From the NCBI GenBank assembly GCA_963804645.1, contig CAWDRG010000014.1:1-25777 (forward strand): a DNA stretch of 25,777 nt. Direction: 5' to 3'. The stretch comes from an uncultured Bacillota bacterium. Its GTDB lineage: Bacteria; Sysuimicrobiota; Sysuimicrobiia; Sysuimicrobiales; Segetimicrobiaceae. Every line of letters starts with the position of its first letter. Within the stretch, counting starts at the first letter, position 1. Both the position numbers and the translations under genes were made by a program. This document shows, piece after piece, positions 6,001 to 25,777 of this stretch. The notes beneath the pieces are model-generated. The model was not told the origin of the DNA. It searched no databases and saw only the letters and a program-made list of their open reading frames with translations.

Positions 6001-6223
6001 CGACCCGCGTGACCGCCTGCTCCAGCGGGTACGTCACGGTGCGTTCCATCGTCTCCGTGCTCGCGCCGCTGTAGGTCGTCTGGACTTGGATGACCGGGAT
6101 CGTGATCTGCGGGAACAGGTCGCGCGGCAGCCGCTGCAGCCCGATCTGACTCAACACGGTGACCGCGATGCACACCATCAGCACCAGGACGGGATTCCGG
6201 ATCGCGGCGCGGGTCAGAAACAT
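3062..6223 (-). CDS. RND efflux permease (AcrB/AcrD/AcrF family)
   Basis: 1053 aa; N-terminal 'LPRDLFPQITIPVIQVQTTYSGAS...VTYPLEQ', TM4 'LVDDAIVVREN', TM11 'RLRPILMT'; two large extracytoplasmic loops. Confidence 0.96.
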   Translation of the reverse strand: MFLTRAAIRNPVLVLMVCIAVTVLSQIGLQRLPRDLFPQITIPVIQVQTTYSGASTETMERTVTYPLEQAVTRVAGVTQILSTTRQGSSSIQVWFDWGSNLDVGEIEVIQNVQRALRSLPTGVSQPFVLKFDISNIPVVQVVVGGGGLNALQLYDLAYNTLEPQLERIPGVSTAFVNGGLLRQINVNVDPHKLQATGLTLQSVITSISQANALLPAGNLQNTQLNYQLNVPTLLQSMPQIQHVIVASDNGIPVHVGDVAQVVDGAATQSQIVHVNGKPGVLLFVARQPDANTIEVVDAVRAALPNLTGIPKGVTLTLSFDQSQYIRAAISTLAHEAMIGAFLTFLVVLVFLRSLWSVFIVSIGIPLSVSSALLLLYFSGQTLNIFTLGGLTLAIGRLVDDAIVVRENITRHLSVPGTPVLQAVINATQEVGLPVFASTSTTIAVFFPVVFLSGIAQRLFMPMALTVIFALLASYVVSMTIDPLLSLRVLRASTGEGIQGEGIVPRFVRWSERSMEHIDERYQRVLHWTLGRGGLVLGAIALVFVLSLIAARGIGTEFFPATDESQFSVKVQAPQGTAVVATSAVVEQIANIVSQTIPPSAVTAVYTNTGVSASGGGGNAGQNYGEVEVRLVSPTHRPKSSDDYANDVRRAIGGKFPGVLAFIQIGGLEHAVVNFGSQAAIDIQLLGYDQAVGQQFAQQVASMVQSIPGTADVQITPRGQTPEFNVNIDTEKAAQLGLNPTAVANAVNTAIAGNVSTASQFIDPVTGNEYNLVVQLQDQYRTHPEDLGSVPLNVLPDAAAANSPPQPSVSIQLRDVADITLGATPLQIDRKNEQRVIDVTANVVNRPLGAVSQDIISALNRTPFPLGFTYHMAGQTEAQSGAFSSLGFALIMALMLVYMIMASQFQSLVDPFVIMFTVPLGFIGVIWMLLLTHTTLSIISFMGVIMMIGIVVSNGILLVDYANKQQAQGMSPHDAIIRAGRIRLRPILMTAIATVCGMIPMALGLGEGAETNMPLARAVIGGLVVSTLLTLLVIPLMYLMFEQRFPRRRQPGQS

Positions 6224-6232
6224 CGGGCGCTC

Positions 6233-7615
6233 CTAGAGACTGACCTGCTGGGTTTGCACGGCCTGCCCTTCCCGCACGAGGTCGGATCCGCGGAACACGA
6301 CGGTATCGGCCTCGGTGACCCCGCCGGTGACGGCCACGTACGAACCGGTCTCGCGGCCGATGGTCACCTGCCGCTGGGTCGTCTTCCCGTCGACGACCGC
6401 CCACACGTAGTGCTCGCTGCCGATCGTGACGATCGCGGTCAGCGGCACCACGAGCGAGCGCTGGTCGCCCGCGTTGATCAGCGCCGTGGCGTACATCCCC
6501 GGCCGCAGCGGATGCCCCACATTCGGAATGTCGATCTCCACCTGCACGGTGCGCGTCTGCGGATCGACGCCGCCCGACATCCGGCTGACGCGCCCGGTAA
6601 ACGTCCGGCCGGGGTAGCTGTCGACCAAAATCTGCACCGGGTCGCCCCGGTGGACCATCGGCAGCTGCGCTTCGCTCACGTCCACCAGGACGTACAGCTG
6701 ACTCAAGTCGGCGATGGTGACGATGGGCGTCGACGTCCCGGGCGTCACGTACGCCCCGGGGTCCAGGGTGCGCGCGACCACGATCCCCGTAAACGGCGCG
6801 ACGATCGTGGCGTTCTGGAGTCCGATCTGCTGGTTCTGCAGCGCGGCGGCCGCCGAATTCGCCATCGCCGACTGCGTGTGCACCTGCGACTGCGCGGCCA
6901 GGATCTGCTGCTGCTGCGCGGTCACCTGCGCGCGCGACTGCACCACCTGGGCTTCCGCCACGCTGATCTGCGCCCGCGCTTGATCGACGGCCGCTTGATC
7001 CGAGATCACCGTCGCCTTCGCGTCGTCGAGCGCCTGCTGTGCGGCGGCCCCCTGCTGAACCAGCGTCGCCGTGCGGTCGTACGTCGCCTGGGCGTCTGCG
7101 AGGGTGGCCTGCGCCTTGGTGAGCCCGGCGTGGGCGTTCACGAGGTTCGCGTCGGCGCTGCGCTCTCCCGCGACCGCACTCGCCAGCTGCGCCTGGGCGC
7201 TCGCGACCGACGCCCGCGACGTCGCGACTGCGGTCGTCGCGGCGGCAAGCGACGCCTGCGCCTGCACCACCTGCGCCTGGAGCTGGTCGTGGTTCACCAC
7301 GGCGACCACCTGACCCGCCGTGACCGGATCGCCGACGCGCACCGTCACCACCTGCAGGTATCCCGAGCTCTGCGGCAGGACCACCGCCTCGTGCAGCGAC
7401 GCGATGCTCGCGGTCAGCTGCAGGATCACCGGCAGATTCTTAACTTCCGGGTGCCCGACGCCGACCGTCGTGGCGACGCGGTTCCGCGCCCGCGAGGTCG
7501 TGGGAGCTGCCGCGGCCTGACTCGCGACCTTCGTCGATCCCGATCGTCCGACCAACAGCCCCGCGACGAGCGCGATGCAGACCAGCGCGATCCATCCCCA
7601 CGATCGACTCTTCAC
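6233..7615 (-). CDS. RND periplasmic adaptor / membrane fusion protein
   Basis: N-terminal TM anchor; lipoyl halves 'VRVGDPVTAGQVVA' and 'IVAPFTGIV' flanking a long Ala/Gln-rich coiled coil; 'LRPGMYA'; directly upstream of the RND permease. Confidence 0.95.
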   Translation of the reverse strand: MKSRSWGWIALVCIALVAGLLVGRSGSTKVASQAAAAPTTSRARNRVATTVGVGHPEVKNLPVILQLTASIASLHEAVVLPQSSGYLQVVTVRVGDPVTAGQVVAVVNHDQLQAQVVQAQASLAAATTAVATSRASVASAQAQLASAVAGERSADANLVNAHAGLTKAQATLADAQATYDRTATLVQQGAAAQQALDDAKATVISDQAAVDQARAQISVAEAQVVQSRAQVTAQQQQILAAQSQVHTQSAMANSAAAALQNQQIGLQNATIVAPFTGIVVARTLDPGAYVTPGTSTPIVTIADLSQLYVLVDVSEAQLPMVHRGDPVQILVDSYPGRTFTGRVSRMSGGVDPQTRTVQVEIDIPNVGHPLRPGMYATALINAGDQRSLVVPLTAIVTIGSEHYVWAVVDGKTTQRQVTIGRETGSYVAVTGGVTEADTVVFRGSDLVREGQAVQTQQVSL

Positions 7616-7906
7616 GCTCGACCCCCTACCCGCTCAACCATTTCGCCCACGCCGGCCTCATGGTATAGACGGTATAGGTGCCTCAGTTCGCACACATGCT
7701 GCTCGAGCTACCGTCGTAGCCGCCCGAGTTGTTGCATCGGCTCGCGCACCAACACCAGTTGCGCCTCGGTAATCTCGATCGCGCACCCGAGGGCCCGACG
7801 GCGAGCCGGTCGGCACCCGCAACTGAATCTCATCGTAGGAGTGAAGCGCCCGCGGCGTCAGCGCGCTGAGGCGGCAGACTCCGTGGATCTGACAAAACGT
7901 CACCAT
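7612..7906 (-). pseudogene. Degraded MerR-family transcriptional regulator
   Basis: ATG 7906 with GAGGT RBS gives MVTFCQIHGVCRLSALTPRALHSYDEIQLRVP (MerR HTH pattern T.R.L..Y..IGLL.P). After a frameshift near 7780 it reads IEITEAQLVLVREPMQQLGRLRR*LEQHVCELR with an in-frame TAG at 7708-7710. Its TGA overlaps the adaptor GTG start (GTGA). Confidence 0.65.
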
Positions 7907-8355: not shown

Positions 8356-8389
8356 AGCGTACGGCGGCGAGATGACAGCCCGATGACAG
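8356..8389 (-). promoter_or_regulatory. Box A: direct-repeat operator plus -10
   Basis: Minus strand: CTGTCAT cggg CTGTCAT ctcgccgccg TACGCT. Confidence 0.85.
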
Positions 8390-8773
8390 GAACCAGGACC
8401 TCGACGCATCAGGCCAACCCGCGCTTCCGGGGGGGGACGCCCTCCCGTCTGAGGCTGTTTTCCCATAGTAGACGGGGACGGGTCGTGGTGAGCGCCGCCT
8501 CGAGCGGGACGAGTGCCCCCGGGGTCCGGCACGCTCGCGGCAATGCGGCAACATGGAGTGTACCGATGCTGACGCTCCTTGCGTGCGCAATGTCGCTGGT
8601 CGAACTCCGTGAGTGCGGGTACTGCTGAGTGGTGCCTTCGAGACCTAGGCTGCGCGATGACGGGCGGCGAACTCTTGAGGGCAGGGGTTGACGTGCACAA
8701 ACGTTGAGACACTAGATGCTGCGTCCGACCGCCGGGAGAAGTATTGCGGTCGTCGGGTAACACGACCGGTCTC

Positions 8774-8805
8774 GTCATTGGGCCGTCATCCTCACCTGCT
8801 ACGCT
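8774..8805 (+). promoter_or_regulatory. Box B: direct-repeat operator plus -10
   Basis: GTCAT tgggcc GTCAT cctcacctgc TACGCT, followed by AGGAGG and TTG 8845. Confidence 0.85.
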
Positions 8806-8844
8806 GAAACCACTTGGTGACGGGCGCCAGAGGAGGGCGGCATC

Positions 8845-9010
8845 TTGAGGGCTCAACGCGACAGCACCGACCTGGTGATCACCGAAGCGCACTTGCAGAT
8901 CGTCTGGGTGCATCGACGCGAGCGGCGTACGGTCCGGCGCCGCTTCGAGCGGCGCGCACGAAACCTCCGGTGGGCTCTCCGCGCCACCCGAACGGTCCAT
9001 GGACGGACGC
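8845..9010 (+). other. Short basic helical coding segment, paralogue of 18934..19128, now running into a kinase remnant
   Basis: MRAQRDSTDLVITEAHLQIVWVHRRERRTVRRRFERRARNLRWALRATRTVHG aligns without gaps to the 18.9 kb ORF; AGGAGG RBS. Confidence 0.55.
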
Positions 9011-9024
9011 ATGCGACCGCCGAG

Positions 9025-9280
9025 CAGATGCGCATGGTCGTCCGCACCTTTCGCGATAACGCGATCAAGCACACGCCAGCGCCGGAACGCGTGTCCCTCG
9101 CCGCCGAGCCGGCCCGAAACGTGCTCCGTATCCGCGTCTCGGACGCCGGCGTCGGCATCCCCCGTGAGGAGAACGCCCGCTCGTCTTCGACCACTTCTAC
9201 CGCGTGGAGAACGCCGACCCCGAGCAGACCGATGGATGGGGGCTGGGCCTCGCGCTGGTCCGAGGGATCGTCGCGGCCCC
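9025..9280 (+). pseudogene. Sensor histidine kinase HATPase_c domain remnant
   Basis: N box 'DNAIKHTP', G1 'IRVSDAGVGIP', frameshift near 9170, then F box 'VFDHFYRVE' and G2 'GWGLGLALVRGIV'. No H-box or sensor domain. Confidence 0.8.
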
Positions 9281-9309
9281 GCGTTCGGCACTTCTGCGCT
9301 CGCCCGCCT

Positions 9310-9515
9310 CCGCGCCGGGACCCGCACCATCTCCGCGGCCGGGTATGGCCTCGGTGGCTCATCATGCTGGTGCCCGCGGTCCACACGGCGCGGGAGTTCT
9401 GGAAGGCCGAGATCCGGAGTTGTACCTCAATGCGGCGTACTTCGGCGAAGGCGCCCAGAGCATACCGCCGCCCGGTGCAGTCACTTGATCTCGTGCAAAC
9501 GGATCAACTCGTGCC
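9310..9515 (+). pseudogene. Peptidoglycan transglycosylase (GT51) fragment
   Basis: Across frameshifts: GTRTIS (cf. GGSTIT), 'LVPAVHTAREFWKAEI/ELYLNAAYFGEGA' (cf. SKDEILELYLNxxYFGxGAYG), 'RAYRRPVQSLDL'. Confidence 0.65.
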
Positions 9516-9755
9516 TCACGGCGAAGATCGTCTCCAAGGTTATGGAGGTTATGGCGCGAGTATCCACCATGGCATCAACACGGTGATATCCTGGGAGGCT
9601 GCTCGTGAGCATCGTCAGCGAGGTCGCCGCGGCCCGAGCCCGTGGTCTGCTGGAGTCGATGTTGAAGGGGGCTCGTCCGACGGCTCGGCGTCGGCGTTTC
9701 GGGTAACTATGGACGGCGTGCCTGGGACCGCGGCGGGAAGTCTCGAACGACCGTA

Positions 9756-10529
9756 ATGCTCCTTGGCCCGCTCTACCGGATCTACGAAGCACGACTCCTA
9801 ACGAGCCTACGAGATGGACCCCTTCCCAAGCACGTTGGCCTCATCCTTGACGGCAACCGCCGCTATGCGGAGCAAGCGGGGCGATCGAGCGCCGACGCGT
9901 ACCGGCGAGGGGCCGACAAGGTTGACGACGTCCTCAAGTGGTGTGATGAACTCGGGATTGCCCAGGTCACGGTGTGGGTGCTCTCCATCGAAAATCTCAA
10001 CCGTCCTGTCGACGAGATACAACCTCTGCTCGATGTGATCGAGCGGAAGATTGCGGCATTGGCCGGGCATCCGGTGACAACACGACACAGACATCGCATC
10101 CGCGCGGTCGGTCACCTGGAGGCGCTCCCGCCATCCCTTCGGCAGACGATCGCTGAGGCGGAACGGCGCACCGCGGGGCATGATACCTGCGTCTTGAACC
10201 TCGCGGTCGGATACAGCGGCCGGCAGGAAATCACCGATGCAGTCCGGGCGCTGGTGCGGACTCACTACCGGCCGGGCATCACCATCGAGGACCTGATGGC
10301 GCACCTTACCCTCGAAGAGATCGGGTGCCACATGTACGCTGGGAGCGACGACGATCCTGACCTGATCATTCGCACCAGCGGGGAGATCCGACTAAGTGGT
10401 TTCCTGTTGTGGCAAAGCGTCTACAGCGAGTATTACTTCTGTGATGTCTACTGGCCCGCGTTCCGCAAGGTCGACTTCTTGCGGGCGCTTCGCAGCTATC
10501 AGCAGCGACAGCGTCGGTTTGGTCGGTAG
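9756..10529 (+). CDS. uppS: Cis-prenyltransferase (UppS family polyprenyl diphosphate synthase), possibly the short-chain Z-isoprenyl type
   Basis: 'HVGLILDGNRRYA', 'SIENLNRP', 'YSGRQEI', 'PDLIIRTSGEIRLSGFLLWQ', C-terminal 'RRFGR'. Confidence 0.95.
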   Translation: MLLGPLYRIYEARLLTSLRDGPLPKHVGLILDGNRRYAEQAGRSSADAYRRGADKVDDVLKWCDELGIAQVTVWVLSIENLNRPVDEIQPLLDVIERKIAALAGHPVTTRHRHRIRAVGHLEALPPSLRQTIAEAERRTAGHDTCVLNLAVGYSGRQEITDAVRALVRTHYRPGITIEDLMAHLTLEEIGCHMYAGSDDDPDLIIRTSGEIRLSGFLLWQSVYSEYYFCDVYWPAFRKVDFLRALRSYQQRQRRFGR

Positions 10530-10849
10530 TAGAGCGGGCATGTCGGGCGGCATGGCGCACCTCGACGCGGGCGATCGGATGCCCGACATCGGTATTATGC
10601 TCCGCGCGCCGCGCTGATATGCGCGAGCGTCGAGCGGGGCGGACCGGTGCGGAGAAAAGCCGCGGCCCGAGGCATCACGACGGGGGGAGGAACGTCGATG
10701 ACACCAAGGGCCGCGGCGTATTGCCGAATATGAGCAAGGTCGGGCCGACCGATCGTCCGTGCCCGCCCGTAGGCGGCACTCGCGCGGGTAGCCTCACCTG
10801 GTGATGTACAGCATCGGGAGGCGGGCGATCTCATAATGTTCTTGGCATT

Positions 10850-12190
10850 TCATCGCGCTTGTGCGGCGTCCAGCGCCGCCTGCAGCTGGGTATCCACGCC
10901 GCGCTCCATGTCGGCCTCCGTGAGCGTTACGGGAACGTCGGGTGAGAGTCCCAGGCCCTCAACCCGCGCGCCTCGAGGGGTGGTAATCCGCTCGACCGTC
11001 ACGGACATCCCACCCTCCGGAAGGGGAACGTCAACCGCCCCACCTAGAGCGCCCGCAGTCTTCTCTCCCACGATCGTCGCTCGATGATAGTCCCTGAACG
11101 CGCCGGTCACGATCTCCGCGGCGGAGGCGGTGCCCGCATCGACCAGAACAGCGAGGGGAACCTCGGCGAGGAGGCCCACCCCCCGCGCCGTAAGCACGCC
11201 AGTTCCGTTCCGCGGGTCCGTCACATCCGCGAGTGCGGTCCCGGACGGGAAGAACAGACCGCCGACGCGCTCCGCTTCGGTGATGAGGCCGCCGGGGTTG
11301 CCGCGCAGGTCGAGGATGACGGCGCGCAGCGGAGCCTGCATGCCGAGTTCCCGAAGGGCGGCGTTTAGATCGCGGCCGGCTCCCTGGCTAAACTGGAACA
11401 GGCGGGCGTAGGCGATGCCGGGCTGGATGAACCGGGCTTGCACGGCTCCCGATTGGATCGGGGCCCGGACGACCGACATCTGCAGGGTCTGCTGCCCCCG
11501 CAGCACGGTGAGGGCCACCGTCGTGCCCGCCGGACCGCGGACTGCCTGGCTCGCCTCCGCGGGGGTGGCATGCCGAAGGGACGTGGTCCCCGCCAGCACG
11601 ATCCGGTCAAAGCGTTGGATGCCCGCGGCTTCAGCGGGGGATCCCGGCACCACCTCGTCGACAAAGACCCAGCGCACGCCGGCGCCATCAGTCCGTCCCG
11701 TGATCCGCACACCGATCCCCGTGAACATCGACGCTCCCGTCAGTACCTGCTGAGACGCCGCGAATTGGCTCGGATTCATGAAGTAGGTGTGGGTGTCGTG
11801 CAGGGAGTTGAGCATCCCCTGGGTCGCGGCATACGCGAGTTTCGTCTCGGCCTGCGGATCCGCCTGAACGGCGCGCAAAAACTCCGTTACAAACGCGGCG
11901 TCCGCCTCCTGCTCCGTCGCGGTGCTCGGGATATCCGGGAGGATCGCGGCGCTCTCATGGGTAGCCGTCCGCACGGTCGCGAGCGCCGCGTTCAGCAGGT
12001 CGACCGGATGCACGGGCTCCGCATAGTTCCCTTCGAGCACCTGGAGTGCCGACACGACGAGCGACCCGTCGGCCGCCCTGGCGGGGGCCACCTGGGCCAG
12101 CAGCGCCAGCACTAGCACGAGGGCCAACGCCGCGAGAGTGCCGCGCGACCCCGCGGACCGCGCATGACCCAACTTCCCCAGTACGTTCAT
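10850..12190 (-). CDS. Exported S41-family peptidase with PDZ domain
   Basis: Signal peptide ending ARA; PDZ 'FTGIGVRI...VVPGSPAEAAGI'; 'ILDLRGNPGG'; catalytic 'TASAAEI'; ATG 12190 with GAGGAGG RBS. Confidence 0.93.
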   Translation of the reverse strand: MNVLGKLGHARSAGSRGTLAALALVLVLALLAQVAPARAADGSLVVSALQVLEGNYAEPVHPVDLLNAALATVRTATHESAAILPDIPSTATEQEADAAFVTEFLRAVQADPQAETKLAYAATQGMLNSLHDTHTYFMNPSQFAASQQVLTGASMFTGIGVRITGRTDGAGVRWVFVDEVVPGSPAEAAGIQRFDRIVLAGTTSLRHATPAEASQAVRGPAGTTVALTVLRGQQTLQMSVVRAPIQSGAVQARFIQPGIAYARLFQFSQGAGRDLNAALRELGMQAPLRAVILDLRGNPGGLITEAERVGGLFFPSGTALADVTDPRNGTGVLTARGVGLLAEVPLAVLVDAGTASAAEIVTGAFRDYHRATIVGEKTAGALGGAVDVPLPEGGMSVTVERITTPRGARVEGLGLSPDVPVTLTEADMERGVDTQLQAALDAAQAR

Positions 12191-12238
12191 TCTGAGACCT
12201 CCTCGTCCCACGCGGCGCATGTGCCGAAGGTACCCGCG

Positions 12239-12916
12239 CTACGCTGCGCGCTGCGCAGTAAACTGAATCTCCAGGTCCACCTGGTTCTGGGCCTGGAGCA
12301 CCCCGAGGAGGGACGGCGGATCGAATCCAAAGTCCGTCATCAGGACGCTCGTGGTGGCATCACCGGTCAGCGTCTGGCCATTGAGCGTGACCGTCCCGGT
12401 GAAGGTGACGGGCTTAATGACGCCATGGACTTCGAGGGTGCCCACGATCCGAACGGGGATCGCGCGGCCATCCACGTAGGCGCTCGGCAGGCCCTCGATC
12501 GAAGTCGAAGTGAACACCGCGGTCGGGTACCGCGCGGACTCGAGCCAGCCACTCTGGATTTCCCGGTCGCGGTGGCGGCTGTCTGAGGTGAGCTGGCTGA
12601 GGTCCACGGTGATCGGTCCGATCCGGCTCTGCGACGGGTGGGCCCGATCGACCAGGATCTGGCCCTGGATCCCGTGCGTGGTCCCAACCGCGACCTTGAA
12701 CTGATTGTTGCGGTTGAAGAACGTCTCGCCGACTCGGTACAGCGCCTGCGACGCCGGCGAATCGATCGCGAACCGCTCCACGCCGGCTACGGCGGGCGCC
12801 GGGACGGGGGCGGCCGCGAGGGCGCCGCCGGACGGCATCCAGGCGGCGAAAAGGGCCGTCAGCGCCAAGAGACCCACGCGGCGCCGCAGGTATGTCAATC
12901 CTGTCCAACTGTGCAT
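12239..12916 (-). CDS. yceI: Exported YceI-family (polyisoprenoid-binding) protein, copy 1
   Basis: Signal peptide; 'LTSDSRHRDREI', 'YPTAVFTSTSI', 'GTLEVHGVIKPVTF', 'TDFGFDPP'; AAGGAG RBS before ATG 12916. Confidence 0.9.
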   Translation of the reverse strand: MHSWTGLTYLRRRVGLLALTALFAAWMPSGGALAAAPVPAPAVAGVERFAIDSPASQALYRVGETFFNRNNQFKVAVGTTHGIQGQILVDRAHPSQSRIGPITVDLSQLTSDSRHRDREIQSGWLESARYPTAVFTSTSIEGLPSAYVDGRAIPVRIVGTLEVHGVIKPVTFTGTVTLNGQTLTGDATTSVLMTDFGFDPPSLLGVLQAQNQVDLEIQFTAQRAA

Positions 12917-13044
12917 GCCAAGTGCTCCTTTCACGCGTCGGCTCGTGCCGAGCGTCCGCGCGATCGCGCGGCTCGAATAATAGTCCAATCGGCTATCCTC
13001 TTCCGTTCCCGTACAACCTCAGTCGTCTCACCTCCAATGGCCTG

Positions 13045-13076
13045 AACGTACCTCGGCGAGATGACATTCGGATGAC
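13045..13076 (-). promoter_or_regulatory. Box C: direct-repeat operator plus -10
   Basis: Minus strand: GTCAT ccgaat GTCAT ctcgccgagg TACGTT, upstream of yceI copy 1. Confidence 0.85.
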
Positions 13077-13440
13077 ACAGGTCGCTTGCACGATCGAGCC
13101 GATCTCCGAGATTCCTGCCCTTCGCCGAACCGTGTTAGGGACGGCACGCACGTCAAGTCGCGCGCGCGTCCAGACCGTGATGGTTGACAAGAGCGGCTTG
13201 CGAGGCACGCCCGTGTGGCTGATGGGCATCAGTATCGATACTCCGACGCGCAAACGGAAGTCCGGTGAGCGCGCGCGTCTCGTCGCGCCGTGGAAGTATC
13301 ATCGCTGCGCTACCAGCCCTGTGGAAAGCCCGACACATGCTGTTACTGACCCGCCGTGTCCGGGAGCGCCGCCCGGGCAGCCCTGGCGCTGCGCCGGACC
13401 ACAACTGGAGATATTGAGGTCGTGAGTAGCACGGCCGTGG

Positions 13441-13474
13441 CTGTCATCGGCCTGTCATCCTCACCCGTTACGCT
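13441..13474 (+). promoter_or_regulatory. Box D: direct-repeat operator plus -10
   Basis: CTGTCAT cggc CTGTCAT cctcacccgt TACGCT, followed by GGAGGT and GTG 13513. Confidence 0.85.
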
Positions 13475-13512
13475 GGGATCGATTGGTGACGGGCATTGGA
13501 GGTGACACCATC

Positions 13513-14166
13513 GTGAGTGCAGAACGCGCCCCCTGGAAAATCGTCGTGTTGGCGCTGACCGCCGTGGTCGGCCTGGGGCTCGGGATCGACGGCGCCCGCG
13601 CGCCGGCTCTAAATCCGGCGCTCGCCGGTATCGGGAGCGCTGCGTCGGCAGCCGGGAGCACTGGCACGGACGGATCCGCGTCGCCCCGCGCTCATGACGG
13701 CAGCGCTCCGTCATCTGCCCGGCCCGGCCGAGGACCAACCGCAGGCGCTGGCGAGGAGGTGGGCGAGCGCGGAAACGCCGAACACGGTGAGACACTCGCC
13801 GCCTCGTCGCAGACTGCGCCGGCCGGGACGCCCTCCGGTTCGCCGCCTCCGGCGGTTGGTCCGCTGCTGGCAGAGATGTGGTACGCGTCTCGCGCCTATC
13901 AAGTATATCCAGCGATGCCGTCCGCTCAGACGAACCGCGCCCTGACCGGCTTCCGGCTCTCGTTCCAGGACGTAAGTCCGACGTCCGCGAAAGTCACGGT
14001 GACGGACCTCCAGGACAACACGACGCAAACTGCCACGTTCGGTCGCACCGACCGTCTCTACTTCATCGAAACACGAATGGGGGATGATGGCTTTGATGGC
14101 GAGACAAACCTTTCCGACGATGGATTCGTCCTCACGGACGCCCAAGGCCACATCATCAGCCGCTAG
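13513..14166 (+). CDS. Uncharacterised membrane-anchored/exported protein with Asp-rich C-terminal domain, copy 1
   Basis: Hydrophobic N-terminus, P/A/S/G linker, and a C-terminal domain of about 100 aa homologous to 18057..18785; GGAGGT RBS. Confidence 0.8.
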   Translation: MSAERAPWKIVVLALTAVVGLGLGIDGARAPALNPALAGIGSAASAAGSTGTDGSASPRAHDGSAPSSARPGRGPTAGAGEEVGERGNAEHGETLAASSQTAPAGTPSGSPPPAVGPLLAEMWYASRAYQVYPAMPSAQTNRALTGFRLSFQDVSPTSAKVTVTDLQDNTTQTATFGRTDRLYFIETRMGDDGFDGETNLSDDGFVLTDAQGHIISR

Positions 14167-14188
14167 CGACAGGCGGCTCGGTCCCTGC

Positions 14189-14560
14189 CTGATCGCCAGG
14201 TTGACGACCGGGCTCATCCTGGGATGCTTCGGATTTTGGGAACTCACCGGCCCGAGCCAATGGACGGGCTATGTGCCGCAGTTCCTGGCGAACATCGCCT
14301 CGCCACTGTTGCTCGTCGTCCTCCATGGGTGGATTTTGTTCCTGCTCGGCGCAGCGGCGCTGATCGATTTCGCGCCGGTGGTCACTGCATGGAGCGCGGT
14401 CGTCGTGGTGGCGGAGGTTGCCGGCGGGCTGGCACTGACGAGCGGGTTCACCGAGATCCTCGTCCGGGACGTTGGGCTCCTCGCCCTGGCGCTAGTATGG
14501 GCACTGGAGAGCAGACACCAGCGAGATGCATCCGCGGCGAATGAACTCGGAACGGCGTAG
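14189..14560 (+). CDS. DoxX-like four-TM membrane protein, copy 1 (start uncertain)
   Basis: 'ARLTTGLILGCFGFWEL..P.QW.GYVP', 'VRDVGLLALAL'; paralogue of 17680..18060. No ATG at the equivalent position (CTG 14189 or TTG 14201 are candidates). Confidence 0.75.
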   Translation: MIARLTTGLILGCFGFWELTGPSQWTGYVPQFLANIASPLLLVVLHGWILFLLGAAALIDFAPVVTAWSAVVVVAEVAGGLALTSGFTEILVRDVGLLALALVWALESRHQRDASAANELGTA

Positions 14561-14866
14561 CCGGGTCGTGGGCGATCGCGCTCCGTTTCTGCGCGAGCCG
14601 CGCCCGGTCTTGCAAAGGGGCAGAAGGTGGCAGCGTGGGCGCGCGATCCAGAGCGCGTCGCAATCGGCCCACCCGTGGGCACCTCGCGAGATCCGCGACC
14701 GCCGCTTTAGGCAATCGCACTATGCCGCTTCGGACGATGTCGACGGGCCTCCGATCAGACAGTGCAGAGGTGCACTCGGAAGAGTTCATGTGAGGCCGCC
14801 GATGGAAGGTGAGCCGTCAAGGCACCACGGATCAAGATACAGCCGAGATTCAAGGAGATGACAAAG

Positions 14867-15265
14867 ATGAAAGGATTTACAACTAATATTGAAGCAGCTG
14901 TGAGAACGAATACTAATTACCGCAAAGTGCTTTACACCGGAAAACACAGCCAATTGGTGCTGATGAGCCTTCGGCCAAGTGAAGAACTCGGAATGGAGGT
15001 GCATCCCAACAACGACCAATTCTTCCGATTTGAAATGGGGCAGGGCAAATGCATCATTGGCGGACACGAATACTTGGTCAAAGACGGAGATGTGGTCATT
15101 GTGCCCTCCGGAGCGAACCATAATGTAATCAATGTATCCGGTTCGGAGGAATTGAAGCTTTATACACTTTACAGTCCGCCACATCATAGAGACGGTATCG
15201 TCCGGGCTACCAAAGCCGAAGCCGAAAAAGACGCGCCCGAGTTTGACGGTGTGACGACAGAATAA
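14867..15265 (+). CDS. Cupin domain protein
   Basis: 'LYTGKHSQLVLMSL...GMEVH...DQFFRFE.G.G', 'GDVVIVPSGANHNVIN'; AAGGAG 9 nt upstream of ATG 14867; much lower GC than the flanks. Confidence 0.92.
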   Translation: MKGFTTNIEAAVRTNTNYRKVLYTGKHSQLVLMSLRPSEELGMEVHPNNDQFFRFEMGQGKCIIGGHEYLVKDGDVVIVPSGANHNVINVSGSEELKLYTLYSPPHHRDGIVRATKAEAEKDAPEFDGVTTE

Positions 15266-15270
15266 AGTCA

Positions 15271-15582
15271 GTGGAACGCACCGTTCGGGACTACGGGGTT
15301 TCGTGGTGCGCTCATCAACGGGAACACGGGACGGCCACTACCTCGACGAGCCGCCGGGGTGGGCTATTCGAACGCGCGCAGGCACTCGACGACGTCCCGA
15401 TCTACATTCACCCGGCCGACCCTCCGGTATGCGATACGGGACATTTACTTCAAAGAATATCAGGGACTGGCGCGCACGGCATGAGGGCGGGCGCTCGACA
15501 CCGGCACACATCTCCTCCAGCTTATGTGTCGCGGGCTCTTCGACGCCTATCCCAAGGCACGAAGCACCGTGGGGCATATCCG
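15271..15582 (+). pseudogene. Amidohydrolase-2 family (aromatic acid decarboxylase/ACMSD-like) internal fragment
   Basis: Across frameshifts: ERTVRDYG/FRGALINGNT/DGHYLDEP/LFERAQALDDVPIYIHPADP...LARTA*GRALDTGTHLLQLMCRGLFDAYPK...VGH. Confidence 0.75.
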
Positions 15583-15601
15583 GCAGCGTGCACACATGCG
15601 A

Positions 15602-16225
15602 TTAGCGCCGGGCGCCATCGCGGGCGACCGCCAGCGCGACCTGGTGCCATGGCTCGGGCGCCGGACTTGCGGCCTCCGATGACGACGATCGGCGGGTGAT
15701 CGGCGCTATCGATGCGGCGGTCGCCGGCACCACCTGACCGGTCTCGCGACCGCGCTCCCGGTAGACCAACGCCCCTCCGGAGTAGCCGGTGACCAGCAAC
15801 ACGGCGAAGGTCAGCACGCCAGCGACCATCGCCAGCCCCGGACGACGGAGTTTGCCCAGGGCGACGGCCAGGCGCGCGGCGACCCATAGCGCGACGAGAG
15901 CGAGCAGGACGTACCCCCAGTGCTCGTGGACCTCCACGCGCCGGCCGCTGAAGAAGTGCGCGAGGTCGGGCAGATGAATCCCCGGCGCCGCGACGGCGGC
16001 ACCACCCTCGCGCTCATTCGCTTCCGGAGTGATGCGACCACTCAGCACGGCCAACACCGTACCAACCGCGCCGGCGGCGAGGCAGTACAAGCCCGCGACT
16101 CGAAACGAGGACGACTTGCGCGCCCAGCCGATGACGTCGAACAGCAGGGCCATCGACAACAGGGCGACCGGGAAATGGGCCAGGATCGGGTGCAACTCGA
16201 CACGCCAGTTGAAGGGAAACGGCAT
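15602..16225 (-). CDS. DUF2231-like membrane protein
   Basis: 'LHPILAHFPVALL', 'HEHWG', 'TGYSGGALVY'; four hydrophobic segments; AAGGAGG RBS before ATG 16225. Confidence 0.85.
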   Translation of the reverse strand: MPFPFNWRVELHPILAHFPVALLSMALLFDVIGWARKSSSFRVAGLYCLAAGAVGTVLAVLSGRITPEANEREGGAAVAAPGIHLPDLAHFFSGRRVEVHEHWGYVLLALVALWVAARLAVALGKLRRPGLAMVAGVLTFAVLLVTGYSGGALVYRERGRETGQVVPATAASIAPITRRSSSSEAASPAPEPWHQVALAVARDGARR

Positions 16226-16270
16226 CGATCTTCCTCCTTGTCTCGTCTGCAGCGCCATCGACCGCGACGC

Positions 16271-16427
16271 ACTGTCTTCGGGCACCTTGAGCCCCGACAC
16301 GAACGCCCCGTCGACCACCCTCGCGGGAACCACCTGGACCACCGGCACCAACACGAGGGCCAACCCCGCGGGAGCGCCGCGCGCTCCCGCGAATCTCACG
16401 TGCCCCGGCGTCGCCCCGCACGACCAT
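16271..16427 (-). pseudogene. Frameshifted 5' remnant of a second S41 peptidase gene
   Basis: RFAGARGAPAGLALVLVPVVQVVPARVVDGAFVSGLKVPE aligns with the S41 N-terminus RSAGSRGTLAALALVLVLALLAQVAPARAADGSLVVSALQVLE; same position after yceI and a similar RBS context (cgaggag..ctcag.ATG). Confidence 0.8.
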
Positions 16428-16475
16428 GCTGAGCACTCCTCGCCTCATTCCGCGCGTGGGCCGAAGGGACGCGCG

Positions 16476-17153
16476 CTACGGCGCGCGCTGCGCCGTAAAC
16501 TGTATCTCCAACTCCACCTGATTCTGCGCCTGGAGAATCCCCATGAGGGACGGCGGATCGAATCCGAAATCCGTTATCAGGACGTTCGTGGTGGCATCTC
16601 CGGTCAGCGTCGGACCATTCAGCGTAACGGTGCCGGTAAAGGTGACCGGCTTGGTCACGTCGTGGACCTGAAGGGTACCGGCGATCCGCACGGGAATTGC
16701 GCGCCCTTCCGCCAGGGTTCCCGGCAGGCCGTCGATCGAGTTCGGAGTGAATACCGCGGTCGGGTATTGCGCGGAATCGAGCCAGCGAGTCTGGATTTCA
16801 CGGTCGCGATGGCGGCTGTCCGACGTGAGTTGACTGATGTTGACGGTGATCGGTCCGATCCGACTCTGCGACGGATGGGCGCGATCGACCAAGATCTGGC
16901 CCTGGATGTCGTGCGTGGTCCCAACCGCGACCGTGAACTGATTGTTGCGGTTGAAAAACGTCTCGCCCACGCGGTACAGCGCCTGCGACGCCGTCGCATC
17001 AATGACAAACCGTTCGATCCCCGCCGCGGCGGGCGCCGGGACGGGTGCAGCCGCCAGCGCCCCGCCAGATGGTATCCAGGCGGCGAGCAGGGCCGCCGCC
17101 AAGAGGCCCACACCGCGCCGCCGTAGGTAGGTCATTCCTGTCTCAATGCGCAT
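16476..17153 (-). CDS. yceI: Exported YceI-family protein, copy 2
   Basis: 225 aa, collinear with copy 1 (about 80% identical by manual count); AAGGAG RBS. Confidence 0.9.
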   Translation of the reverse strand: MRIETGMTYLRRRGVGLLAAALLAAWIPSGGALAAAPVPAPAAAGIERFVIDATASQALYRVGETFFNRNNQFTVAVGTTHDIQGQILVDRAHPSQSRIGPITVNISQLTSDSRHRDREIQTRWLDSAQYPTAVFTPNSIDGLPGTLAEGRAIPVRIAGTLQVHDVTKPVTFTGTVTLNGPTLTGDATTNVLITDFGFDPPSLMGILQAQNQVELEIQFTAQRAP

Positions 17154-17322
17154 GCTGCATGCTCCTTTCCATCCGCCCGACGTGGCGGGCCTCCGCGCGA
17201 TCGCGCGGTCGAGAGTTTTCGATCAGAGCGCCCGCTCGCTCCTGAAGGTTCCGGGTGTAGGGTCGATGGGACGCCGTCGGCACCGGTCCCGGCCCACACA
17301 AGCGGGTCGGTCGCACCTCTGT

Positions 17323-17354
17323 AGGCTACGCCGCCGAGATGACATCCGGATGAC
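17323..17354 (-). promoter_or_regulatory. Box E: direct-repeat operator plus -10
   Basis: Minus strand: GTCAT ccggat GTCAT ctcggcggcg TAGCCT, upstream of yceI copy 2. Confidence 0.85.
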
Positions 17355-17679
17355 ACGCGGTCCCGGCGGAACCAGGAGGTGTTCGGCGCTCCGGGGCTGC
17401 GCGGAGCGCCGGGTCGTGCTCGCCAGGGGTGGCCCGAGCGCCAGTGGACCGCGGCGGACCGCGCTTGGTGCTCTTCGCCGCCCCATGCCCGTGGTGCTGG
17501 AGATCAGCGAGGAGAGGTGACGAGGTGCGCAACCGCACCCAGGACGCAGCGAGGTGGCCCCCCTCGGGCGGGTTCCGGATTGGTCGAGGAGGCCGCCCAC
17601 CCACGCAGGTCGGGTGCCGCGTGCCACCCCCACGAAGCGTGGCGTGCCATGCGCCGGACTGCGACGCGCGGGACGTGCG

Positions 17680-18060
17680 TTACGGGTTCGAGTCGGGCGC
17701 CCTCGTTGCCTCCGGATGCGGTCCGGTTTCCTCCGCCGCCCAGACCAAGGCCAGCGCCAGCAGCCCGACGTCGCGGATGAAGGTCGCGGTGACACCACCC
17801 GTCCATGCGAGCACCGCGACGACTTCGGCCAGCGCGGCCACGGCGAGCCAGGCGGTCACCGGGGGAACGAAGTTGATCCAGGCCGCCGCGCCCAGCATCA
17901 AGAGCACCCACCCGTGCGCCAGGACGAGCGGCACGGCCTCGACGCGTGCCGCGGGAAGAGGAGGGACGTAGCCGATCCATTGGGCCGGCGCCGCGAGTTC
18001 CCAAGCACCGAAGCTCACAAATACCAATCCCGTGGCCAGCCGCGCGAGGAGACGGGTCAT
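17680..18060 (-). CDS. DoxX-like four-TM membrane protein, copy 2
   Basis: 'LARLATGLVFVSFGAWEL..P.QW.GYVP', 'IRDVGLLALAL'; ATGA overlap with the upstream gene. Confidence 0.82.
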   Translation of the reverse strand: MTRLLARLATGLVFVSFGAWELAAPAQWIGYVPPLPAARVEAVPLVLAHGWVLLMLGAAAWINFVPPVTAWLAVAALAEVVAVLAWTGGVTATFIRDVGLLALALVWAAEETGPHPEATRAPDSNP

Positions 18061-18785
18061 CGCGGCCCCGTGCTGGGAGCTCCGAATAGGCCCGACGAAG
18101 CAAGGATGTGCCCCGCCGCGTCGGTCACGATGAAGATGTCGTCACTATCATCCGTTTCGCCCCCCACCCCATCGTCGTCCCCCTCCGAGTCGACGAAGTA
18201 GAGGCGATAGCTATTGTCATAGATCGCGTGCTGGGTGGAATCGTCCCGGAGGTTGTACAGCGTCATCTCCACCGTCGTCGGCGAGGCGGGGCGGATCATC
18301 AGCTGGAACCCCGTGAGCGCCCGCTCGGCGTCGGCTGATGGCGAGCCGGGATACAGCTGGTACGCAAAACGGGCGTACCACGTTTGCGACAGCAGAGGCC
18401 CGCTGCCTGGGCTCGCGGAGGCGCGAGCCGCAGCCCCCGACGGCGTGGGAGGAGGAGCCAGCGGTCGAACCCCGGTCTCCCGCCGGGTCGACCCCGCCGG
18501 CGCCGCCTCGGAGGTGGACACCGCACGGAACGTTCGCGGCGTTGGTGCGCGCGGTTCCCCCCGCTCCGATTTCATGGCGGGGGTGGACGGCTCGACGGGG
18601 ATGGCCGCGCGAGGGGTCGCCCCCAAGAGGATTTCGGGGGTGATGCCGCCACCCGCTGACGATGCGGGAGGCTCGACTCCCGGCAGCAGGGTGGATCGCG
18701 GCTGCACAGAATCGCTCGTCAAGGCCAGCGCGAGACCTCCGATCGCAACAAGCACCATGACCGTGATCTTCCCCATCTCCCGCAT
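18057..18785 (-). CDS. Uncharacterised membrane-anchored/exported protein with Asp-rich C-terminal domain, copy 2
   Basis: Hydrophobic N-terminus, P/A/S linker, 'GPLL..WYA..AYQ.YP...RALTGF...RLYF...DDG..GET..SDD.F..TDA.GHI' shared with copy 1. Confidence 0.8.
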   Translation of the reverse strand: MREMGKITVMVLVAIGGLALALTSDSVQPRSTLLPGVEPPASSAGGGITPEILLGATPRAAIPVEPSTPAMKSERGEPRAPTPRTFRAVSTSEAAPAGSTRRETGVRPLAPPPTPSGAAARASASPGSGPLLSQTWYARFAYQLYPGSPSADAERALTGFQLMIRPASPTTVEMTLYNLRDDSTQHAIYDNSYRLYFVDSEGDDDGVGGETDDSDDIFIVTDAAGHILASSGLFGAPSTGPR

Positions 18786-18866
18786 GCCGCTACTGTTGTG
18801 CCCTGCGTACGGACCTCGACGGACATGGCCGGACCGCATCACGCTCCAGGTATCACGACCTGTCCC

Positions 18867-18898
18867 GTCATCGGGCCGTCATCCCAACCCGTTACGCT
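18867..18898 (+). promoter_or_regulatory. Box F: direct-repeat operator plus -10
   Basis: GTCAT cgggcc GTCAT cccaacccgt TACGCT. Confidence 0.85.
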
Positions 18899-18933: not shown

Positions 18934-19128
18934 CTGAGGACTTCACGCGACGCCGCCGACCTTGTGATCATCGCAGCGCAATTGCGGATCGTCCGAATGC
19001 ACCTGCGGACGTGGCGCACAGTCCAACGCCGCCTTGAGCGGCGCGCACGACTCTACCGATGGGTCCTCGGCGCGCCCCGAACGCTCCATGGATTACGCGC
19101 GGAGAGCGGCGGGCCCCCGGCAGCCTAG
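18934..19128 (+). CDS. Small basic helical protein (about 64 aa), paralogue of the 8845 segment
   Basis: (M)RTSRDAADLVIIAAQLRIVRMHLRTWRTVQRRLERRARLYRWVLGAPRTLHGLRAESGGPPAA*; start inferred (CTG 18934, homologous to TTG 8845) after GAGAGGGG. Confidence 0.5.
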   Translation: MRTSRDAADLVIIAAQLRIVRMHLRTWRTVQRRLERRARLYRWVLGAPRTLHGLRAESGGPPAA

Positions 19129-19335: not shown

Positions 19336-20589
19336 CTAGAGAACCAGCCGCAATGCGTCGAGCGACTCGAGGCCCGGTCGAATCTTCGGGAGCCCTTGCA
19401 TTTCATCCACGGACATCGGGGATTGCTTTAGGCCGTGCCCGGTAGACACGATGACCACCGTGTCGTCGGCGTCGATCGTGCCGGCATCTGCCAGGGCGGA
19501 CACCGCGGCCACGGCGACACCGACGCTCGGTTCGACATACAGACCCTCGGTCTCGATGAGGAGTCGCGCGCTGTGCAACAGGACTTCGTCCGCGACGGCA
19601 ACCGCCTGTCCTCCCGATCGACGAACAGCGCGGAGCGTGTAGGTGCCGTCAACGCTGTACCCGACCAGAGGATCGCGAATGCCCATCGCAACGGTGTGCG
19701 GGGACTCCCACGGCTCGACCGTATCTGCGTTCTGGACAAACGCGCGCGCGATGGGCGCGCATCCAGCCGCCTGTGCGGCCACGAGCTTGGGAAGATGGTC
19801 CACTAACCCCGCGCGCTGCATTTCCGCGAACCCCTTCCCGATCCCCACCAGGAGTGGCCCCGACCCAACCGGGACAATGATCCACGAAGGGCCACGCCAG
19901 CCCAAGGCCGCGGCGATCTCGTAGGCCACGGTCTTGTCGCCCTCGACGGAATAGGGGTTCTCGAACGTCGACGTGACGTTGCACCAGCCGAATTCACTCG
20001 CCGCGGCGTGCGCCAATTCACTGCAGTCGCTGAACGACCCGTCGACGCATACGATCCGAGCGCCGGGGGAAGCGATCTGAAGGAGTTTGGTCACCGGCGT
20101 GTCAGCCGGAACCAGCACTACTGCGCGGATCCCCGCCTTCGCCGCGTATGCGGCCATCGAGGCTGCGGCATTTCCGGTAGACGCCGTCACGACGATGTCG
20201 GTCCCCATCTCACGGGCTTGCGATACGGCAACGCTGATCGGGCGGTCCTTGAACGAGCCTGTCGGCTGCCTGGTTTCGTCCTTCACCCACAGCGACCGGA
20301 GTCCCACGGATCTCCCAAGCCGCTCTGCCTTGAGGAGAGGGGTCTGTCCCTCGCCCAGCGTGACCATATATCCCGGCGACACCGGGAGAAGATCTCGATA
20401 TACCCACATGCCGTCAGCACGGGTGCCCGAGGTCCCTTCGAACGAAGCGTGTCCGATCTTCGAATAATCGTAGTCGATGTCAAGCGGCCCCTCGCAGACG
20501 TCACAGCGGTAGATTCGACCAAGGCTGACGCGCTTGCCGCACATCGAGCAAGTCGCACTGATCGCAAGCGTGTGCCCTTCGGTGATCAT
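19336..20589 (-). CDS. thrC: Threonine synthase-like PLP enzyme (fold type II)
   Basis: N-terminal CxxC...CxxC; 'LGEGQTPL'; PLP Lys in 'KDETRQPTGSFKDR'; 'ASTGNAAAS'; 'EGDKTVAYEI'; 'VPVGSG'; 'TGHGLK'. Confidence 0.9.
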   Translation of the reverse strand: MITEGHTLAISATCSMCGKRVSLGRIYRCDVCEGPLDIDYDYSKIGHASFEGTSGTRADGMWVYRDLLPVSPGYMVTLGEGQTPLLKAERLGRSVGLRSLWVKDETRQPTGSFKDRPISVAVSQAREMGTDIVVTASTGNAAASMAAYAAKAGIRAVVLVPADTPVTKLLQIASPGARIVCVDGSFSDCSELAHAAASEFGWCNVTSTFENPYSVEGDKTVAYEIAAALGWRGPSWIIVPVGSGPLLVGIGKGFAEMQRAGLVDHLPKLVAAQAAGCAPIARAFVQNADTVEPWESPHTVAMGIRDPLVGYSVDGTYTLRAVRRSGGQAVAVADEVLLHSARLLIETEGLYVEPSVGVAVAAVSALADAGTIDADDTVVIVSTGHGLKQSPMSVDEMQGLPKIRPGLESLDALRLVL

Positions 20590-20622
20590 ACGAGGGTTCT
20601 CCTACGCGGCGCGGCAATCGCG

Positions 20623-21384: not shown

Positions 21385-21413
21385 AGGTTGCGCGACGATG
21401 GTTTCGGCCCCCG

Positions 21414-22064: not shown

Positions 22065-22065
22065 C

Positions 22066-22734: not shown

Positions 22735-22745
22735 AGGCTCGACGG

Positions 22746-23732: not shown

Positions 23733-23762
23733 CGTCTCACCCCACATCCAGCAGATTGTGAA

Positions 23763-25469: not shown

Positions 25470-25777
25470 GCGTATCGACTCCAGACGTTCGTAATGCGAG
25501 TCCACTTCCACCGTCTAGGACAATCCCCTGCTCGCTGTCCACAATGCGGACACGGAGCCCACCTAATCGTGCGAGCCTTTCTGGGTCAGGAGCGACGCTA
25601 CTTCTTCTCAATTATCAATTGCCTTGGATATCTGTGGCACGTCCGGGCGGGCGCCGACTCTCGCCGGCGGAATCGCCGGCTGTACCCAGGTCCGCCACGT
25701 CAACCCGATTTCTACCTGATGAGGTGCCCGCATGTCTCCCACCGCCGCCGCGCCCCGGCTGACCCTTGCCGAAGCTA

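Follow-up and report, generated by a model that had tools for sequence, protein, structure and literature searches.

What do six identically spaced, promoter-like elements control on a single contig of an uncultured bacterium, and which regulator reads them? The contig, CAWDRG010000014.1 of assembly GCA_963804645.1, was analysed over its whole length of 25,777 nucleotides (hereafter the window) and is contig C14 of the source genome G000 (5.3 Mb, 69% GC). Relatives of this organism are labelled 'bacterium', 'Bacillota' or 'Armatimonadota' in public records and make up a one-order phylum, covered here by 94 genomes, which would be CSP1-3/Sysuimicrobiota, described in PMC11604079 as comprising one class and one order. 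A first-pass annotation had drawn attention to six exact, intergenic, gene-facing elements of the form GTCAT-N6-GTCAT-N10-TAnnnT and had attributed them to one response regulator encoded elsewhere. Comparison with relatives suggests that these boxes probably belong to an envelope-stress regulon governed by an OmpR-family regulator and a sensor kinase encoded on another contig of the same genome, C17.

The elements themselves were readily reproduced. The window contains GTCAT-N6-GTCAT 6 times, compared with a mean of 0.06 and a largest count of 1 in 100 shuffles, and the full pattern, searched with up to one mismatch permitted, returned the identical 6 sites, all exact, and none in the shuffles (0/100). 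Each box lies outside gene calls and is oriented toward an open reading frame (ORF), with TACGCT as the -10 hexamer in four cases, and TACGTT and TAGCCT in one each. Four of the coordinate pairs given earlier stand, while the ends 8389 and 13441 had taken in a 2-nt CT prefix and become 8387 and 13443. The geometry recognised as that of OmpR/PhoB-class activators is also borne out, with direct repeats at an 11-bp period (6/6 window sites; 12 genome-wide) and a -10 at N10, the repeats standing, by sequence, in place of a -35. A generic sigma-70 promoter scan returned 2 sites, at chance level. The flanks of the boxes at 8774, 13443 and 18867 are 73-75% identical and the two yceI units 80% identical, so that the six sites are not independent and the shuffle test overstates their significance.

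Genome-wide, the bare repeat occurs 13 times at N6, 16 times at N7 and 0-7 times at the remaining spacings from 3 to 12, and N6 is therefore not enriched. TAnnnT, however, follows at exactly N10 behind 12 of the 13 N6 repeats and never at N7-9 or N11-13. The signal resides in the added -10. Six of the 12 boxes are on C14 and six in a 93-94% identical copy at C17:130.8-140.5 kb. A search permitting one mismatch in the repeat added no member in G000 (12; reversed control 0), and looser matches on C19 (at the ends of two transposase genes), C13, C15 and C22 were unconvincing as extra members.

Despite the duplications in the window, independent support is provided by relatives, in which the box stands ahead of unrelated genes. 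The exact pattern was present in 9 of the 41 genomes of the relatives set, G000 counted, with 24 sites outside G000 and 1 control hit. The scan of the genome and its relatives that had been suggested was carried out with a scoring matrix trained solely on 23 distinct sites from relatives and none from G000; it placed the 12 G000 sites on top (27.6-39.4 bits), the next site reaching 19.2 bits and none exceeding 15 in the reversed genome. Variants with N11 spacing were limited to 2 among 23 family genomes, G001 and G003. In five paired C14/C17 sites, 0 of 65 core positions differ, compared with 10 of 95 non-core positions (Fisher p=0.006), which indicates that the box is under selection at its core bases.

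The regulator that best fits these sites is encoded beside the C17 copy. Among the 11 loci of G000 with an OmpR-type DNA-binding domain, a strong box was found within 1.5 kb of only one, on C17 (score 31.5; the rest at most 12.0). There, adjoining the copy of the window, the genes for a DUF2231 protein, the regulator, the kinase and a double cupredoxin follow each other on the same strand behind the box at C17:130860. The expectation that an autoregulatory box would accompany an OmpR-family pair proved sound, as a box touches the regulator/kinase pair in 11 of the 11 genomes with the kinase: upstream of the operon in G000, divergent in G001, G002, G003, G005, G006, G012 and G014, and behind the kinase in G009, G017 and G057. 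At the divergent loci, the box lies 6 nt from the -35 of the regulator's own TTG-17-TATACT promoter (6/6 loci checked), and G000 retains this promoter plus one remaining half-site. The single regulator postulated earlier would correspond to this OmpR-family gene, whose kinase partner has orthologs that share 10 genomes with the box. Of the 94 phylum genomes, 11 have the exact box, 11 a kinase ortholog, 10 both and 82 neither; counted by genus, 4 have both, 25 neither, and there is one single each way (1 and 1), bearing in mind that related genomes are not independent and that incomplete genomes may hide a box or a kinase. The two exceptions fit the box-kinase association. In G009, which encodes the kinase, a box with one mismatch follows that gene after 12 nt. 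In G045, four tandem GTCAT half-sites (L080:8127-8179) are flanked by a fasciclin gene and by an OmpR/kinase pair other than the present one, and the recognition helix of that OmpR protein, NVVEATIRRLR, resembles that of the regulator clade, which suggests a second system using the GTCAT half-site.

In a tree of 22 rows, which carried a long-branch join warning for G045, ten regulators and one Bacillota-labelled relative formed one clade (100/99), apart from the other OmpR proteins of G000 that were included. The recognition helix of this clade is near-invariant, NVVD(A/V)T(V/I)SRLRRRL. No NCBIfam model scored the regulator above its cut-off, the nearest being RppA (199.9/250 bits), heavy-metal (181/279) and PhoB TIGR02154 (178/296). 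The kinase has two membrane helices, a small beta-rich outside domain of about 85 aa, and no HAMP domain match. Across 62 kinase homologs, no His, Met or Cys column of the outside domain is conserved at 90%, and Cys is absent from it in 59 of the 62. A model of this sensor domain (pLDDT 74) had no Foldseek match at E<=0.001 (best WalK, E 0.07), and VIA-align recovered only generic helical hairpins. Searching with the N-terminal part of the kinase yielded 64 proteins in about a dozen clusters at 50% identity. In a wider survey of the kinase, 27 genome loci included 8 true orthologs, one of them in a Bacillota-labelled record with only a weak box, and none of the 18 distant kinase loci L059-L076 had a box score above 10.8. 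Taken together, the C17 regulator very probably reads the box.

The six elements would accordingly be promoters activated by this one regulator. An envelope signal would lead the kinase to phosphorylate it, and the regulator would bind the two GTCAT half-sites head to tail, replacing the -35 element, and recruit sigma-70 polymerase to a weak -10; binding, activation and start sites are here predictions from promoter layout. The output would be an envelope repair kit made of HtrA and S41 proteases, YceI, DUF2231, the acidic/4TM pair and a MerR-coil microprotein, to which relatives would add a candidate small RNA (sRNA). The YceI family binds lipid or quinone. The regulator gene would have its own sigma-70 promoter and, in G000, would also be reached by read-through from the boxed DUF2231 promoter, giving positive feedback. 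The window itself would be a duplicated, partly decayed island in which an RND pump and a cis-prenyltransferase came to sit behind boxes. Public RNA-seq (3 runs of one study, contigs only) contained a single identical 202-nt contig, at 13881-14082, and otherwise short dissimilar pieces, which is too weak for expression or start sites; one run contained 8% of the words.

The genes concerned are listed in Table 1. In the 11 genomes with the kinase ortholog, and with second genes of apparent operons counted, the boxed targets are HtrA/trypsin-type proteases (6), YceI (6), the MerR-coil protein (6), S41 proteases (4), DUF2231 (4), the acidic protein (3), the sigma-4-like protein (2), a membrane protein (2) and an NMT1-type ATP-binding cassette (ABC) importer (2). 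The box ahead of HtrA is exact in G001, G003, G005 and G057 and has a GTAAT variant in G002 and G006. The recurrence of HtrA and S41 proteases behind boxes favours envelope stress among the signals first proposed; an isoprenoid signal is little supported, and metal remains a rival.

Table 1. Boxes, genes and related features of the window and of the loci compared with it. Positions without a contig or locus prefix refer to the window (C14).
Feature	Position	Strand	Remarks
Box 1	8356..8387	-	-10 TACGCT; ahead of sigma-4-like ORF
Box 2	8774..8805	+	-10 TACGCT; ahead of MerR-coil small ORF copy 1
Box 3	13045..13076	-	-10 TACGTT; ahead of yceI-1 and S41 protease; unit also in G002
Box 4	13443..13474	+	-10 TACGCT; ahead of acidic protein 1 and 4TM protein 1
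Box 5	17323..17354	-	-10 TAGCCT; ahead of yceI-2 and DUF2231
Box 6	18867..18898	+	-10 TACGCT; ahead of MerR-coil small ORF copy 2
P1B-type ATPase	444..2327	+	P1B-4 type (SPC, HEGS(T) motifs); no box; travels with module
AcrB-family RND permease	3062..6223	-	nearer multidrug than CzcA models; below all NCBIfam cut-offs
RND membrane-fusion protein (MFP)	6233..7615	-	downstream of box 1
Broken merR	7615..7906	-	split over several frames, with an internal stop; C21 has an intact copy
Sigma-70 region 4-like protein (sigma-4-like), 125 aa	7969..8346	-	weak matches; boxed G002 ortholog (L032:8042-8368), 51% identical
MerR-coil small protein copy 1	8845..9000	+	52 homologous codons, TTG start
cis-Prenyltransferase	9756..10529	+	PRK14835/PRK14828 score best, though under cut-off; box 2 is 950 nt away
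S41 C-terminal processing protease	10850..12190	-	with PDZ domain
YceI-family secreted protein 1	12239..12916	-	
Acidic protein 1	13513..14166	+	N-terminal hydrophobic segment, linker, ~100-aa beta domain
Small multi-transmembrane (4TM) protein 1	14189..14560	+	start uncertain
DUF2231 membrane protein	15602..16225	-	
YceI-family secreted protein 2	16476..17153	-	
Small multi-transmembrane (4TM) protein 2	17680..18060	-	
Acidic protein 2	18057..18785	-	no same-strand box
MerR-coil small protein copy 2	18934..19128	+	64 aa, CTG start where relatives have GTG
OmpR-family regulator	C17:129390-130079		PF00072+PF00486
Sensor kinase	C17:128218-129393		PF00512+PF02518
Likely Pho promoters of G000	C9 254322; 256685; 245415; 610921	+; -; -; +	TTAA-type repeats, N6/N10
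Candidate sRNA, several hairpins	L033:7790-7994	-	also L025, L030, L036, L045, L149

Two genes that had been counted as members do not hold up in relatives. The RND unit of genus relatives with a close ortholog lies behind an intact merR and is unboxed in 4/4 MFP loci (within 1.5 kb), and a second copy in G000 itself, on C21, with the permease DNA 92.6% identical, also has an intact merR and no box. On the same contig, a Met-rich secreted protein (C21 29142-29680) is accompanied by an opposite-strand array of three half-sites, 4.5 kb from this native merR-RND copy. Close cis-prenyltransferase orthologs likewise have no box within 1.5 kb at 4/4 loci, and one ortholog in G015 is found behind an acidic/4TM/DUF2231 module. 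Both genes would at best be recent captures in G000, and co-regulation of the cis-prenyltransferase by box 2 is uncertain. The sigma-4-like ORF ahead of the pump starts with an ATG 9 nt past the -10 of box 1, an offset that is the same in G002; it is probably leaderless, and its product may, like the MerR-coil protein, act in trans as a shortened regulator. The two yceI leaders (128 and 169 nt) hold the palindrome CCGCGCGATCGCGCGG (12960-12975 and 17193-17208), seen also at G002 L031, which may be a second operator or an RNA hairpin. Of the acidic/4TM units, the first lies behind box 4, and the second (18785-17680, minus strand) is without an own-strand box. The domain of the acidic protein is conserved, with an invariant D/E-rich loop; it matched no Pfam family in 24 rows, and its model (pLDDT 81; ESM Atlas 0.79) had no Foldseek match (best Z 4.6), a result that does not establish a new fold. 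The label 'DoxX' previously attached to the 4TM protein had to be dropped: 0 of 26 homologs match Pfam or NCBIfam at E<=1, alignment with a true DoxX protein gave an hhalign probability of 0.1, and neither DoxX (PF07681) nor a DoxD/DoxA-like pair has a supporting profile.

Several observations weigh against an envelope-stress regulon. The HtrA ortholog of G000 itself (C11 59391-60503) is unboxed, with a best score of -8.6, and the strongest envelope-stress marker is therefore missing in the very genome under study; the box would have been lost there or never present. The upstream region of this gene carries GGAAC and may be an extracytoplasmic function (ECF)-type promoter, which would point to a possible rewiring. 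The sole box found in G009 and in G017 stands ahead of an NMT1-type ABC importer, a target at odds with envelope repair. In G015 and G019, the acidic/4TM/DUF2231 module adjoins another kinase pair and has no box, and it is boxless also in G002 C39, G009 and G013. Two-mismatch variants of the box exist in G013 and G015, genomes without this kinase, and GTCAT repeats of the same geometry are ordinary Pho boxes in other bacteria; the GTCAT half-site is hence not unique to this regulator. Such variants, GTCAC-N6-ATCAT-N10-TACGCT, stand before a protein with an HMA domain at L209 (G013:C108:1938) and L210 (G015:C88:21876), and probably mark another OmpR-type regulon. Lastly, C14 may derive from a co-binned strain, as the assembly may hold more than one.

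Could the sites simply be Pho boxes read by PhoB? The core of the E. coli Pho box is CTGTCAT (PMC4415409), set out as two 11-nt direct repeats with strict spacing (PMC4415409, PMC10294691), and among the matches listed pstS, pstC or phoU matches lay near 10 of 119 metagenome loci with the GTCAT geometry; of these loci, 39 of which had short flanks, one had an ortholog of the C17 pair and most had no match in the reference set. G000, however, has its own phosphate genes on C9, with pstS, pstC, phoU and a phoB/phoR-like pair, and the box that was to be looked for at pstS or phoU is not there (best score in the cluster 4.2 bits). Instead, four C9 promoters, that of pstS included, follow (A/T)T(C/A)A(C/T)-N6-TTAA(C/G/T)-N10-TAnnnT, a pattern written after inspecting them, with all genome sites on C9 and 0 in the reversed control. 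One site each lies upstream of pstS, of the GAK operon, of a small ORF transcribed divergently from phoB, and of a gene that, from a motif, we presume to be phosphoesterase-like. PhoB of C9 has another recognition helix (RTVDVHVRWLR) and falls outside the clade of the C17 regulator, and the remark that none of the targets is a classic phosphate gene agrees with a Pho regulon of G000 that uses TTAA-type repeats and a different regulator. With the exact box confined to 11 of the 94 phylum genomes and absent from the other 83, the Pho explanation is contradicted and very improbable. Even less credible is a single chance promoter multiplied by local duplication, with no regulon behind it: the window sites do lie in duplicated units, the C17 copy is a paralog and the bare repeat is unenriched at N6, but in relatives the box is found on several contigs, upstream of genes that are unrelated to each other, its core bases are conserved while the spacers change, and it tracks the kinase across the phylum; the relatives' matrix, the core conservation and this co-occurrence contradict such an origin.

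The alternatives that matter concern the signal rather than the regulator. If the C17 regulator does read the box, envelope or protein-folding damage has about an even chance of being what is sensed; on that same premise metal excess would be a possible but clearly less probable signal, and extracytoplasmic redox one that is less probable again. Metal and redox stay in contention because of the neighbours of the module. ApbE, a ferric-reductase-like protein, VIT1, cupredoxin, the P1B-4 ATPase, DUF2231 and the acidic/4TM proteins recur together under different kinase pairs, at L237 (G015:C102), L239 (G019:C75), L240 (G002:C39) and L057, in what looks like a mobile island with an iron/redox flavour, and the acidic-4TM-DUF2231 module appears from its distribution to be mobile. 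A regulator sensing metal excess (Fe2+/Co2+ or copper) in the manner of CusRS, CopRS or CzcRS, with the envelope genes secondary, is suggested by the P1B-4-type ATPase (SPC, HEGST) that adjoins the module in G000, G002 (twice) and G019, with a remnant in G015. Such ATPases are described as Fe(II)/Co(II) exporters (PMC7012047). Also in its favour are the double cupredoxin behind the kinase on C17, the cupredoxin and VIT1 flanking the module in G002, the D/E-rich loop of the acidic protein, a weak 19.2-bit site before the Met-rich secreted protein on C21, and the rank of TIGR01387 as second-best model for the regulator. Yet the regulator scores 181 bits against a cut-off of 279 for that model and the kinase 89 against 293 for TIGR01386, the sensor domain has no conserved metal-ligand column, the ATPase and the cupredoxin of G000 have no box of their own, and the boxed targets of relatives include no metal exporter. 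We rate metal sensing as unlikely. Sensing of the extracytoplasmic redox or quinone state, in the service of an electron-transfer module, is suggested by the closest outside relative (L057, Bacillota; kinase 44% identical, regulator in the same clade), where ApbE, the ferric-reductase-like protein and DUF2231 lie beside the pair, by the same trio beside another pair in G015, and by the NDH-2 and CtaA/UbiA genes that adjoin the genus locus; ApbE/MsrQ-like clusters are treated in PMC8238504 as extracytosolic redox systems. The box-like sequence of L057, between DUF2231 and the operon, is nevertheless weak (9.1 bits), NDH-2 faces the box and is not its target, and the sensor has no conserved Cys, and we regard the redox account as distinctly improbable.

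Among described systems, CiaRH is the closest functional analogue of the proposed envelope-stress regulon and would work alike, although the system is not classed as CiaRH. CiaR of Streptococcus pneumoniae recognises TTTAAG-N5-TTTAAG at an 11-bp period, 10 nt before the -10, with htrA and small RNAs as targets (PMC3091779), and CiaRH has been tied to cell-envelope stress (PMC3091779, PMC11034029). The two share an OmpR-type regulator and the same promoter geometry, and here htrA is boxed in 6/11 genomes (not G000) with an RNA candidate in 5 relatives. They differ in the half-site (GTCAT instead of TTTAAG), in the recognition helix (that of the clade given above, compared with VVEVYVSKVRKKL in CiaR) and in targets, which here include YceI, S41, DUF2231 and the MerR-coil protein. 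Heavy-metal two-component systems (TIGR01387/TIGR01386), such as CopRS of Corynebacterium glutamicum as presented in PMC3353115, resemble the pair in their OmpR type, in a tandem-repeat operator by the regulator with divergent targets, and in a P-type ATPase and cupredoxin near the pair or module; the differences are the scores below cut-off, the missing HAMP domain and metal ligands, and boxed targets other than metal exporters. Cyanobacterial RppA/RppB (NF041734/NF041735) are the best-scoring models, yet below cut-off (199.9/250 and 146.8/400 bits). The combination of a membrane kinase, an OmpR-type regulator, a direct-repeat operator and an HtrA-type protease target is known from CssRS, MprAB and CpxRA, and the CpxA model gave the kinase 71 bits against a cut-off of 486. 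No description of the present system was found in the literature searched, a search that had most subscription papers and supplements outside its scope and nothing aimed at MerR-derived microproteins.

The small helical ORFs had rightly been placed among the box targets, but their origin had been missed. They encode 52-64 aa, their start being conserved and preceded by a GAGG(A)GG-type site, and the gene is boxed in 6/6 genus genomes with the system, at N10 in G000, G002, G005 and G006 and at N11 in G001 and G003. Copy 1 of the window is diverged, its frame continuing to 9756 through a histidine-kinase ATPase remnant. Among the 94 genomes, clear orthologs are restricted to these 6 genus genomes; weaker matches (E 1e-5 to 1e-3), in those inspected or mapped, hit the C-terminal helix of MerR proteins, a G015 match being outside that set. 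Alignment of the small protein with the C-terminal helix of the pump-linked MerR gave an hhalign probability of 95.8 (E 7.7e-9; 45% over 40 columns). A profile that includes the window copies, run against 4875 predicted G000 proteins that do not contain the small ORFs themselves, had the pump-linked MerR as its sole significant match (5.6e-7; next 0.46; reversed proteome best 0.14), and two other MerR-like proteins of G000 had none; an ESM Atlas model (0.82) was uninformative. By these profile comparisons, the small proteins reproduce, as free-standing units, the C-terminal coiled coil of the MerR before the pump, sharing that helix with the MerR family (PF13411) but differing from it by lacking the DNA-binding domain and by being a separate gene under a two-component promoter.

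In MerR proteins, dimers are joined through the coiled coil made by this helix, and the MerR-coil protein, which would be the most conserved target in the genus, is therefore a possible dominant-negative partner, a concept best known from eukaryotic microproteins. We tentatively suggest that the two-component system might thereby control the pump indirectly, the induced microprotein pairing with MerR into heterodimers with a single DNA head that would reset pump transcription, with the sRNA as a second non-enzymatic output. The window would short-cut the same logic, its merR being broken and its pump copy directly behind a box. A plain alternative is that a recruited gene fragment may form its own coiled coil with another role. 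The candidate sRNA was seen in five genus relatives. There, the box that faces away from the regulator gene is followed by some 200 nt in which no gene was called, and in four of the five this stretch converges with NDH-2. It is ~70% conserved and has a more stable predicted fold than shuffled sequences (z -2.75 and -3.47), with some compensatory pairs in a covariation that rests on about three lineages. Rfam had no match for the window or the candidate (6 sources searched), and an RNA model run over 23 genomes recovered only its five training genomes, with none in G000 or other genera.

Beside these genes, the window holds a separate block of lower GC (19336-25511; 60-63%) with a pyridoxal phosphate-dependent enzyme, an amino-acid ABC transporter and a sulfatase, and no boxes. 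A cupin gene (14858-15265) is found in C14 and missing from the C17 copy, where the alignment skips 14578-15343. Relative to C14, C17 has mostly single-base deletions that break several targets and leave regulator and kinase intact; they may reflect decay or long-read error. Blocks of 5-11 kb are duplicated at 87-99% between C13/C21, C3/C4, C12/C9, C15/C5 and C17/C20 of G000, assembly contamination is 4.17%, and the tetranucleotide profile of C14 is ordinary (ranks 0.11-0.23). Neither strain mixing nor decay changes the regulator assignment.

The regulon thus appears to be real, apparently undescribed and of a known kind, in an uncultured soil and peat group. It provides a full set of operator, regulator, kinase and targets for an uncultured phylum, for which no gene regulation was described in the literature searched, and it places the uncharacterised DUF2231, acidic and 4TM proteins with envelope proteases. 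G000 would use two OmpR-class regulons with a shared promoter geometry and different half-sites, and as a half-site of the E. coli Pho type would here serve a system unconnected with phosphate, a Pho-box label should not be the default annotation for GTCAT repeats. The part that could surprise specialists is the MerR-coil protein: if it binds MerR, it would illustrate a simple route by which cross-talk between regulators may evolve, and would represent a dominant-negative microprotein of bacteria that passes the signal of a kinase on to a one-component regulator.

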